A DNA stretch of 42,323 nt from Escherichia coli (GTDB lineage: Bacteria; Pseudomonadota; Gammaproteobacteria; Enterobacterales; Enterobacteriaceae), in the NCBI RefSeq assembly GCF_003334315.1, contig NZ_QOWR01000043.1, one strand, 5' to 3'. Below are positions 22,524-25,582 of the stretch, piece after piece. Each line of letters starts with the position of its first letter. Within the stretch, counting starts at the first letter, position 1. The translations under genes were made by a program, and so were the position numbers. The notes below the pieces were generated by a model, which made no database searches, was not told the origin of the DNA, and saw only the letters and a program-made list of their open reading frames with translations.

Positions 22524-23759
22524 ATGCTGCAACAGGTTCCAACGCGTGCTTTTCATGTGATGGCGAAACCGAGTGGTTCCGATTGTAATCTGAACTGTGA
22601 CTACTGTTTTTATCTCGAAAAACAATCCCTTTACCGCGAAAAGCCAGTCACGCATATGGACGATGACATGCTGGAAGCGTATGTCCGTCACTATATCGCT
22701 GCCAGCGAACCGCAAAACGAAGTGGCTTTTACCTGGCAGGGCGGCGAACCAACGCTACTCGGGCTGGAGTTTTACCGCCGTGCCGTAGCGCTACAGGCGA
22801 AATATGGTGCTGGCAGGAAGATAAGTAACAGCTTCCAGACTAACGGCGTGCTGCTGGATGACGAATGGTGCGCGTTTCTCGCGGAGCATCATTTTCTTGT
22901 TGGTTTATCGCTGGATGGCCCGCCTGAGATCCACAATCAATATCGCGTGACTAAAGGTGGCAGACCCACGCATAAGCTGGTGATGCGTGCCCTGACGTTC
23001 CTGCAAAAACATCATGTCGACTATAACGTGCTGGTCTGCGTTAATCGCACCAGCGCGCAGCAACCGTTGCAGGTATATGATTTTTTGTGCGATGCGGGAG
23101 TGGAATTCATCCAGTTTATTCCGGTGGTCGAGCGCCTGGCTGATGAAACGGCTGCCCGCGAAGGACTGAAATTGCATGCGCCTGGTGATATTCAGGGTGA
23201 GCTAACGGAATGGTCTGTGCGCCCCGATGAATTTGGTGAATTTCTGGTGGCGATTTTTGACCACTGGATCAAACGCGACGTCGGCAAGATTTTCGTGATG
23301 AATATCGAATGGGCGTTTGCCAATTTTGTCGGTGCGCCGGGTGCGGTTTGCCATCATCAGCCAACCTGTGGGCGCTCGGTGATTGTTGAGCACAATGGCG
23401 ACGTTTACGCCTGCGATCACTATGTTTATCCGCAATATCGGCTGGGGAATATGCACCAGCAAACAATTGCAGAAATGATCGATTCCCCGCAACAGCAGGT
23501 GTTTGGTGAAGATAAATTTAAGCAGTTACCGGCGCAGTGTCGTAGTTGTAACGTGTTAAAAGCGTGCTGGGGAGGCTGCCCGAAACACCGCTTTATGCTC
23601 GATGCCAGCGGCAAGCCTGGGCTGAATTATTTATGTGCCGGGTATCAGCGTTATTTTCGCCATCTGCCGCCGTATCTTAAAGCAATGTCTGATTTGCTGG
23701 CGCATGGCCGCCCGGCCAGCGACATTATGCATGCGCATTTGCTGGTGGTGAGTAAGTAA
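22524..23759 (+). CDS. aslB: Anaerobic sulfatase-maturating enzyme homolog AslB (radical SAM), 411 aa
   Basis: ORF 22494..23759; start MLQQVPTRAF at ATG 22524 with aggag RBS; CxxxCxxC motif CNLNCDYC plus C-terminal Cys clusters. Confidence 0.92.
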   Translation: MLQQVPTRAFHVMAKPSGSDCNLNCDYCFYLEKQSLYREKPVTHMDDDMLEAYVRHYIAASEPQNEVAFTWQGGEPTLLGLEFYRRAVALQAKYGAGRKISNSFQTNGVLLDDEWCAFLAEHHFLVGLSLDGPPEIHNQYRVTKGGRPTHKLVMRALTFLQKHHVDYNVLVCVNRTSAQQPLQVYDFLCDAGVEFIQFIPVVERLADETAAREGLKLHAPGDIQGELTEWSVRPDEFGEFLVAIFDHWIKRDVGKIFVMNIEWAFANFVGAPGAVCHHQPTCGRSVIVEHNGDVYACDHYVYPQYRLGNMHQQTIAEMIDSPQQQVFGEDKFKQLPAQCRSCNVLKACWGGCPKHRFMLDASGKPGLNYLCAGYQRYFRHLPPYLKAMSDLLAHGRPASDIMHAHLLVVSK

Positions 23760-23769
23760 AAAAGCGGCC

Positions 23770-23920
23770 ATTTTGTGGCCGCCTGCGGTTGATTGCCGGA
23801 TGCGGCGTAAACGCCTTATCCGGCCTACATGATCGTGCAAATTCAATAAATTGCAGCGTTCTGTAGGCTGGATAAGATGCGTCAGCATCGCATCCGGCAA
23901 AGGCAGATCTCAGCGATAGC
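23770..23920. repeat. BIME/REP cluster between convergent aslB and aslA
   Basis: Several palindromic units (gccggatgcggcgtaaacgccttatccggcctaca; gatgcgtcagcatcgcatccggca) with an attcaataaattgca linker. Confidence 0.8.
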
Positions 23921-23926
23921 GCCGGC

Positions 23927-25582
23927 TTAGTCAGATTTAATCTGCGCGCGTGGTGGATATTTTTTCAGGATCTCCATATACGCGTGCATTTCGGTCTGTA
24001 GCGGTACACCCATCGGAATATGGCGCACGCCGATGGAGTCGCTTTCCTGCGGATCGGTGTAGAGGTTAAACACCGACGATCCCGCCGTTTGCATTACTGT
24101 GCCGGTGAATCCACCCTGATATCCGCTCTGGGTATAAGCGTAAGGTTGCTGAATCAGGACGTGATACTTGAACTCATCCATACGCACAGCAGCGAGTTTA
24201 CCGTTGAGGAAGTAGTGCTCGGCCTTACGGTTAGACTGACCATTTGTTCCCAGGAAGAAGGATGTCTGGTCCACACCATCGATAAAGGTGGTTTTCGGCA
24301 CTAAATTCGCCACTTTCGCTCCAGGATGCCCTGCCAGATCCAGCGCGGTAGGGAAGAGATCTGCCAGATCGACAATACCGTCAGATTTACGCGGTTGGAT
24401 CATCCCTTTCCAGTAAACGAAAGTCGGTACGCGAACGCCGCCTTCCCAGGTCGAACCTTTCGCACCACGGAACGGGGTGCGTCCGTGCGGCGGTACTTCG
24501 GCTTCCGGTCCGTTATCGGAGGTAAAGACGATCAGCGTGTTATCAAGCTGACCGTTTTTCTCCAGTGTTTTATACAGATTAGCGAACACATCGTTCATCT
24601 CCACCATGCAGTCGCCATACGAGGTGCGTGCCGGAGAGCTACCCGCATATTTAGCGTTCGGGTAGTTATCGAAGTGACAGCCGCGAGTGCCGTAATAGAG
24701 GAAGAAAGGCTTATCGCTCTTCGCCATCTTGTCGAGGAACTTAACGCCATATTCCATCCAGCGTTGATCCAGATCTTCCATATATTTCGGCGTAATGTCG
24801 GCAATGGCCTGTTGTTCGCCGCCGCGCACTGCATGAACATCATCTTTGCTGAACGGTAATTGCTTGATGTATTCAGAATGGTCCGGACTCAGGGCCACTT
24901 CCGGATTGACGTGAACGTCGCGCCATTCGGTGTACATATCAGACACCGAGTTAAAGCCACGGAAATCATCAAAGCCAACGTTCTGCGGCTGCGACTCTTT
25001 GTTTTCCCCCATATGCCATTTCCCGATAGCCTGGGTGACGTAACCTTGGTCGTGCAGCAATTGCGGCAGGGTGGTTAACCCTTGCAGACCTCCCGGTTGC
25101 CCGTACATTGGCGGCATCAGAATGCCGTGGTGGATGGAGTATTGTCCGGTGAGAATGGTGGCGCGGGTTGGGGAAGAGCTTGGTTGAGAATACGCCGACG
25201 TTAAAATCAGCCCCTGGCTGGCAACTGCATCGATATCTGGTGTAGGGTTACCCACCGCCACGCCGCCACCGTTAAAACCGACGTCCATCCAGCCCACATC
25301 GTCCAGCAGGAAGATAACCACATTGGGCTTCTTACCGGTTTTTTTCTCAAGTTCTGCCAGCTTCTGCTGGGTTTCTTTATCCTGCGCCGGATGCTGCATT
25401 ACTGGCATCATGTTGTCGGCAATAGTGGTCGCCGGTTTAACCAGATACTGGTTTGGGTGATCGTATCCGGCAAAGCCTTTGCGTGCGGTGGCAGTTGACG
25501 GGGTATCTGCTGCGCTGGCCATGAGAGGAAGAGCGGCGGCGACAGCAACAACAAGACGTTTGGGTGAAAACGAAATTTCCAT
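23927..25582 (-). CDS. aslA: Arylsulfatase-like protein AslA, 551 aa, with N-terminal signal peptide
   Basis: ORF 23927..25582 minus; sulfatase signature S-x-P-x-R ([11 protein letters not shown]); hydrophobic signal sequence ending ASAADTP. Confidence 0.93.

Follow-up and report, generated by a model that had tools for sequence, protein, structure and literature searches.

The aslA-aslB locus of Escherichia coli: a serine-type sulfatase precursor beside its probable radical-SAM maturase

We analyzed a window of 42,323 nucleotides from Escherichia coli (RefSeq assembly GCF_003334315.1, contig NZ_QOWR01000043.1), and within it two convergent genes, aslB and aslA, that together fill positions 22524-25582, exactly from the start codon of aslB through the start codon of aslA. 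We conclude with good confidence that aslA encodes the precursor of a Ser-type, formylglycine-dependent sulfatase of family S1 and that aslB encodes its probable cytoplasmic maturase, a radical S-adenosylmethionine (SAM) enzyme. Three lines of evidence carry this conclusion: the position of a serine residue in AslA, the cysteine residues of AslB, and the company that the Ser form of the sulfatase keeps in other genomes.

The locus is the known and annotated aslA-aslB pair, and the observation is in that sense ordinary; the pairing is textbook annotation and its confirmation adds little. What we add is incremental. Within one orthologous family, a switch between Ser and Cys at the modified position follows the type of the neighboring maturase, and a deletion of aslA that leaves aslB in place is widespread in E. 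coli. The switch, its link to the maturase type and the common deletion all provide handles for testing AslA function. E. coli is the standard host for the production of recombinant sulfatases, and the literature still calls the understanding of its own maturation systems incomplete (PMC6189696, PMC8379841). AslA is also listed as an invasion-associated factor (PMC11879602).

Sequence features of AslA and AslB

AslA is a protein of 551 amino acids encoded on the minus strand at 23927-25582, where the open reading frame, the RefSeq annotation, the Pfam Sulfatase match and an alignment to the solved structure 7AJ0 agree. The Pfam Sulfatase domain (PF00884) covers residues 86-418 and is matched over positions 1-300 of the 301 in the model, with E=2.4e-71. 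The initial annotation had called attention to a Ser-type motif, S-S-P-T-R, and this motif forms residues 136-140. It lies inside a complete match to the sulfatase catalytic-site signature PS00523 at residues 134-146 (codons at 25145-25183, minus strand), a match that was reproduced by none of 20,000 shuffles of the protein. The second sulfatase signature, PS00149 (G-Y-x-T-x-x-I-G-K-W-H), is matched at residues 180-190. Both patterns were taken as they are quoted in PMC5066984. The bare pattern [CS]x[PA]xR would be weak evidence if used alone, being present in 15% of the AslA shuffles and twice in AslA itself. We considered S315-S-P-A-R (residues 315-319; 24626-24640, minus strand) as a second modification site and rejected it: its first residue is Arg in most homologues (63 of the 121 sequences aligned read RSPAR here), and no LTG context follows it.

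The predicted formylglycine precursor is Ser136, whose TCT codon is at 25175-25177 on the minus strand. Alignment to solved homologues places this residue at the catalytic position. Ser136 is aligned to the Cys of C-T-S-S-R in PsFucS1 (7AJ0), which is the catalytic Cys of that enzyme, and also to position 69 of human arylsulfatase A (ARSA) in the 1E1Z sequence, where the residue is Ser; we take 1E1Z to be the C69S mutant of ARSA. Likewise, D94-D95, K188, H190, H303, D356-N357 and K375 of AslA are aligned to the matching metal-binding and catalytic residues of both ARSA and PsFucS1, and the copy of AslA in the window keeps all of the catalytic residues. Thus, Ser136 does occupy the formylglycine position, as the initial annotation had supposed, and the same column holds Cys in most of the closest homologues, as described below.

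The initial annotation had also assigned a signal peptide to AslA, and the N-terminus fits one of the Sec type as judged by a hydropathy heuristic. It consists of K8 and R9, a hydrophobic core at residues 10-21 (with an 11-residue Kyte-Doolittle mean of up to 2.69) and A-S-A at residues 22-24. The predicted signal peptide would thus comprise codons 1-24 (25511-25582, minus strand), with cleavage after A-S-A by the -3/-1 rule. Export by the twin-arginine route was considered and rejected, the N-terminus having K-R and no S/T-R-R-x-F-L-K motif.

AslB is a protein of 411 amino acids encoded on the plus strand at 22524-23759, ending 167 bp from aslA. Its assignment as an anaerobic sulfatase-maturating enzyme (anSME) of the radical-SAM/SPASM type is based on the open reading frame, the RefSeq annotation, TIGR03942, Pfam and an alignment to the structure 4K36. 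Against the TIGR03942 equivalog model, 'anaerobic sulfatase maturase', AslB scores 516.8 bits, above the curated cut-off of 349.45. Pfam identifies a Radical_SAM domain at residues 19-187 and a SPASM domain at residues 283-343 (E=2.6e-11). The protein is related to anSMEcpe of Clostridium perfringens (4K36) with E=8.5e-64.

The cysteine residues of AslB correspond one to one to the cluster ligands of anSMEcpe. The CX3CX2C radical-SAM motif, C21-N-L-N-C25-D-Y-C28, is encoded at 22584-22607 (plus strand), and C21, C25 and C28 are aligned to C15, C19 and C22 of anSMEcpe. The eight cysteines of the auxiliary clusters are encoded within 23349-23636 (plus strand). Those of Aux I are C276, C282, C297 and C352, aligned to C255, C261, C276 and C330 of anSMEcpe, and those of Aux II are C339, C342, C348 and C371, aligned to C317, C320, C326 and C348; the ligands of the auxiliary [4Fe-4S] clusters in anSMEcpe are those listed in PMC5715301. 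All 11 cluster-ligand cysteines are therefore aligned, as are Y30 and D298 of AslB with Y24 and D277 of anSMEcpe. The radical-SAM motif and the additional Cys clusters that the initial annotation had seen in the convergent neighbor of aslA are thus those of an anSME, and the Cys set of the SPASM region is complete.

The Ser/Cys switch and gene neighborhoods among AslA homologues

We next consider the residue found at the position of Ser136 in the 120 closest homologues of AslA, each at least 60% identical to it. The column aligned with Ser136 holds Ser in 34 of these and Cys in 84, and the motif around it is nearly invariant: SQPS[C/S]SPTRATI[LM]TGQ. The Ser form is found in the nearest relatives, namely enterics and a few others (Salmonella, Citrobacter, Kluyvera, Enterobacter, Uliginosibacterium and a deltaproteobacterium). 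The Cys form is found in Sphingopyxis, Novosphingobium, Caballeronia, Paraburkholderia, Legionella, Bdellovibrio and others. The homologues of Salmonella, Citrobacter, Kluyvera and Superficieibacter are 82-83% identical to AslA, and their motif is unchanged.

The gene neighborhoods of twelve non-enteric homologues were then compared. One Cys-type contig was too short to judge, and 11 loci remained, of which six are Ser-type and five Cys-type. A gene with both Radical_SAM and SPASM domains lies within 4 kb of the AslA homologue in five of the six Ser-type loci and in none of the five Cys-type loci (Fisher's exact p = 0.015, for a small sample of 11 loci and with phylogeny ignored). In four of the Ser-type loci (L003, L004, L013 and L014) the sulfatase and maturase genes are convergent, as they are in E. 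coli, and in the fifth (L009) they are co-directional. Three of the neighboring maturases were tested with TIGR03942; all three pass and are 57-62% identical to AslB. In one of the Cys-type loci, that of Caballeronia (L008), the gene directly following the AslA homologue is an FGE-sulfatase gene. Given this split between Ser-type and Cys-type neighborhoods, sulfatase and maturase form a conserved module of two genes, which are convergent as a rule, and where the sulfatase has the Ser form the radical-SAM maturase goes with it. This association agrees with the published confinement of Ser-type S1 sulfatases to anaerobes: about 21% of the family contain Ser and, apart from two eukaryotic sequences, these members come only from facultative or strict anaerobes (PMC5066984).

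The initial annotation had suggested that activation of AslA depends on AslB. Such a dependence is supported by the finding that, in distant bacteria, AslB orthologues lie beside Ser-type AslA homologues and not beside Cys-type ones, and we infer it for E. coli together with the order of modification and export, the periplasmic location and the activity of the enzyme. AslB would bind the S136-S-P-T-R segment of pre-AslA while the latter is still unfolded in the cytoplasm, modification being stated to take place on the unfolded chain (PMC5066984). SAM would be cleaved reductively at the [4Fe-4S] cluster held by C21, C25 and C28 of AslB, and the resulting 5'-deoxyadenosyl radical would take the C-beta hydrogen from Ser136. 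An electron would then leave through the two auxiliary [4Fe-4S] clusters to give the aldehyde, formylglycine; this chemistry, like the part played in it by the auxiliary clusters, is that described for anSMEs (PMC7771511). The modified precursor would presumably be exported by the Sec system, with the signal peptide cut after Ala24, and, once in the periplasm, would fold about a Ca2+ ion that has D94, D95, D356 and N357 as its ligands. Ser-type sulfatases are described as periplasmic (PMC3920027). In the mature enzyme the hydrated formylglycine would attack the sulfate ester, with the probable assistance of R140, K188, H190, H303 and K375.

The same data bear on whether Ser136 is oxidized at all. 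AslA could instead use a plain serine nucleophile, in the manner of phosphatases of the alkaline phosphatase superfamily, or could have residual activity only. There are precedents for this, since a choline sulfatase that lacks the modification still turns over (PMC6189696) and a Ser-type metagenomic sulfatase is active in E. coli with no obvious maturase (PMC8379841), and AslA itself has weak Pfam matches to the Phosphodiest family. However, AslA keeps the entire maturase-recognition signature, the column of Ser136 is occupied by Cys in homologues that are associated with FGE or that have no maturase nearby, and a dedicated anSME gene accompanies the Ser-type form. We therefore find it scarcely credible that Ser136 is never oxidized, and we retain Ser136 as the predicted formylglycine precursor.

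Several of the non-enteric loci have further features of their own. In the deltaproteobacterial locus (L004, positions 1924-6665; Ser-type, with an anSME gene) and in that of Caballeronia fortuita (L008, positions 1-5701; Cys-type, with FGE), the same two genes precede the AslA homologue, one encoding an outer-membrane channel of the Phenol_MetA_deg family and the other an SdsA-like alkylsulfatase. Between these two loci, the type of maturase was exchanged inside an otherwise conserved cluster. A locus from a metagenome-assembled genome (L013, positions 1-7178) holds, within 7 kb around the AslA homologue, two sulfatase genes (one encoding 757 amino acids with an SGSH_C domain), two Radical_SAM/SPASM genes and a GntR regulator. 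In Uliginosibacterium (L003), the AslA homologue stands among genes with Pfam matches to rhodanese, PALP, hexapeptide-repeat and SrpI-like families, and these neighbors likely function in sulfur or cysteine metabolism. The contexts of L003, L004 and L008 hint at the scavenging of organosulfates (sulfate esters).

Locus structure and the loss of aslA in E. coli

The window as a whole is E. coli chromosome, with thrP, four tRNA genes, aslB, aslA, glmZ and hemYXDC. The order of genes around the pair is wecG, thrP, the tRNA genes (Arg, His, Leu and Pro), aslB, aslA, hemY, hemX and hemD. A 3.3-kb stretch containing the pair is 100% identical in DNA sequence to several complete E. coli chromosomes, and the RefSeq labels on the identical DNA are 'aslB: anaerobic sulfatase maturase' and 'aslA: arylsulfatase AslA'. 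The length of 411 amino acids for AslB is counted from the ATG used in RefSeq. No sulfatase-related genes flank aslA in E. coli, and the context in this species gives no clue to the substrate.

The 167-bp gap between the two genes contains two features. A GC-rich hairpin followed by a run of T lies on the minus strand at 23762-23784, touching the stop codon of aslB; it matches the terminator consensus and would mark the 3' end of the aslA transcript. An inverted pair of repetitive extragenic palindromic (REP) sequences, forming a bacterial interspersed mosaic element (BIME), lies at 23795-23899 and was recognized from its sequence and its inverted self-match. Because of this element, a query that includes the aslB-aslA intergenic region matches an E. 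coli genome at a median of 24 places, whereas either coding sequence alone does so at one.

On the other side of aslB, the cluster of four tRNA genes lies at 21941-22404 (plus strand). At its end, a strong hairpin resembling a terminator (22383-22404) stands 120 bp upstream of aslB. This hairpin makes it probable that aslB needs its own promoter in the short gap. A promoter scan for aslB and aslA found none above chance (3 sites, compared with 5.5 expected). The small RNA gene glmZ (Rfam GlmZ_SraJ, 218 bits) lies at 26007-26213 (plus strand) in the AT-rich region between aslA and hemY and has a terminator hairpin of its own at 26179-26208.

We surveyed 5426 complete E. coli genomes for both genes, counting a gene as present when at least 80% of its length was covered. 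By this measure aslA is present in 3694 genomes, and every row sampled among these is full-length and annotated as a normal coding sequence. In the other 1732, only the first 139 nucleotides of aslA remain. When we mapped the junction in E. coli W, the missing segment was found to run from the interior of the BIME to codon 46 of aslA; in the window this corresponds to 1,579 bp at 23865-25443, comprising part of the BIME and codons 47-551 of aslA, and about one complete E. coli genome in three lacks the segment. What is left of the gene carries the annotation of a partial 'arylsulfatase' pseudogene. Since a 5' remnant is left behind, the genomes that lack aslA have undergone a deletion and have not simply failed to acquire the gene. 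In a study of isolates from inflammatory bowel disease (IBD), aslA cosegregated with epithelial invasion and the isolates were described as having 'acquired' AslA (PMC11879602). In E. coli strain ES6 (H1; NZ_CM184335.1), an insertion of the IS1B family splits aslA in a locus that is otherwise 100% identical, and this is an independent route to the loss of the gene.

The survey also bears on a different account of the locus, in which AslA is cryptic or decaying in E. coli, rarely or never matured or expressed and in the course of being lost, its pairing with aslB being a historical remnant. The large number of genomes that keep only the remnant would fit such an account, as would the IS1 element in ES6 and the lack of sulfatase-related genes beside aslA. 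A passage of PMC6189696, which cites a deletion study of aslB and ydeM, points the same way in stating that modification in E. coli is limited to Cys residues and in calling the machinery behind it elusive. However, aslA is still covered over at least 80% of its length in 3694 genomes, the copy in the window has a complete set of catalytic residues, and the homologues of Salmonella, Citrobacter, Kluyvera and Superficieibacter have kept both the motif and a high level of identity. The cosegregation of aslA with invasion in the IBD isolates likewise argues against decay, as does its citation, in a passage of the same article, as a factor for invasion of brain endothelium in E. coli K1 (PMC11879602). 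On balance, we think it unlikely that AslA is merely a decaying gene, and we continue to regard it as a sulfatase precursor for which AslB is the probable maturase.

The retention of aslB is one of several points that weigh against our conclusion. At least 80% of aslB is covered in 5425 of the 5426 genomes, even though aslA has been deleted from 1732 of them. E. coli W, which has no aslA, has an intact aslB with all 14 Cys; its aslB differs from that of the window at 57 nucleotides, but at only 12 of the 411 amino acids. We found no experiment in the literature on formylglycine in AslA, on sulfatase activity of AslA or on the action of AslB on a Ser substrate. If E. coli modifies only Cys, as the passage cited above has it, then, under the aerobic conditions normally used, chromosomal aslB may be silent or may lack activity; the maturation of sulfatases in this species is elsewhere called 'still not completely understood' (PMC8379841). 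Among the non-enteric loci, one Ser-type homologue (L011) has no anSME gene within 4 kb. In addition, aslB and aslA are convergent genes with separate promoters, unlike the Klebsiella atsBA operon.

The presence of aslB in genomes from which aslA has been deleted means that AslB is not necessarily dedicated to AslA. Its retention suggests either that it has other clients, anSMEs being promiscuous, or that there has been too little time for decay. In the strongest form of this argument, AslA is not the main client of AslB at all: AslB would act chiefly on another sulfatase encoded elsewhere in the genome or on a peptide that is not a sulfatase, and AslA would be matured otherwise or not at all. 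The near-universal presence of aslB and its integrity in E. coli W favor this argument. So does the biochemistry of anSMEs, which touch mostly the peptide backbone of their substrates; other bacteria mature many sulfatases with just a few of these enzymes or with one alone (PMC7771511). According to a passage of PMC11215262 that cites Almeciga-Diaz 2017, overexpression of AslB in E. coli raises the activity of two unrelated human Cys-type sulfatases, IDS and GALNS, up to 4.6-fold; this was the one functional result for AslB that we found. AslB also has strong sub-threshold matches to models for maturases of RiPPs (peptides made on the ribosome and modified after translation), such as DynA and DarW, but these scores are far below the respective cut-offs, while the anSME model is passed. 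Moreover, AslB orthologues adjoin Ser-type AslA homologues in beta- and deltaproteobacterial genomes and in metagenome assemblies, an arrangement not easily accounted for if the two did not act as a pair, and service to other clients would be compatible with AslB maturing AslA too. We therefore consider it very unlikely that the main client of AslB lies elsewhere.

A role of AslB beyond AslA we put forward tentatively, as possible but not probable. AslB might be a general anaerobic maturase for sulfatases encoded elsewhere, or might have a different substrate. The deletion of aslA would then mean that a single sulfatase activity was lost at the level of lineages, and this loss may be connected with the association reported between aslA and invasiveness.

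Comparison with known systems

The experimental precedent for a pair of this kind is AtsA/AtsB of Klebsiella pneumoniae, in which Ser likewise stands at the formylglycine position and an exported sulfatase is encoded beside a gene for a three-cluster radical-SAM/SPASM maturase (PMC5066984, PMC3920027). The likeness holds at the level of the family. AslA scores 108.2 bits against the NCBIfam arylsulfatase equivalog NF010322, below the cut-off of 481. We take NF010322 to represent the Klebsiella AtsA type and, judged by this score, AslA belongs to the same superfamily as AtsA and is not its orthologue. The arrangement of the genes differs as well, atsBA being an operon according to the title of Murooka 1990 and aslA and aslB being convergent. 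Furthermore, maturation of AtsA by AtsB has been demonstrated experimentally, whereas maturation of AslA by AslB is a probable function deduced from the evidence given above.

The closest solved structure to AslA, by far, is PsFucS1 of Pseudoalteromonas sp. MB47 (7AJ0), which is matched over AslA residues 52-544 with E=2.8e-100; the next, human arylsulfatase A among others, are near 1e-41. PsFucS1 belongs to SulfAtlas S1_13, and the relationship of AslA to it is drawn here from solved structures. The two proteins have the same metal ligands and the same catalytic position, which in PsFucS1 are Asp69, Asp70, Asp334 and Asn335 for Ca2+ and Cys111 for catalysis (PMC8484680). They differ in that PsFucS1 is Cys-type with an unusual C-T-S-S-R motif that has no Pro, whereas AslA is Ser-type with S-S-P-T-R. 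In the PsFucS1 motif, Ser replaces the usually conserved Pro or Ala of the maturase-recognition motif, and the crystal showed an unmodified Cys (PMC8484680). PsFucS1 also differs in being a thermostable hexamer from an aerobic marine bacterium; it frees sulfate from fucoidan oligosaccharides and is slow on the aryl sulfate para-nitrocatechol sulfate (pNCS) (PMC8484680). Fucoidan is an unlikely substrate for AslA in E. coli.

For AslB, the closest reference is anSMEcpe (4K36-4K39), an enzyme whose natural client is a Cys-type sulfatase. AslB belongs to the same fold family and keeps the Cys ligands of all three clusters together with the counterparts of Y24 and D277. The difference between the two is an insertion of about 15 residues in AslB, near residues 210-225.

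Finally, the pair in the window is the same locus as aslA-aslB of E. coli K-12 and K1. Its DNA is 98-100% identical to that of many annotated chromosomes, with the same neighbors (the tRNA operon, glmZ and hemY) and the same product names. Nothing of substance differs between them, and the differences that do exist are a few allelic substitutions.

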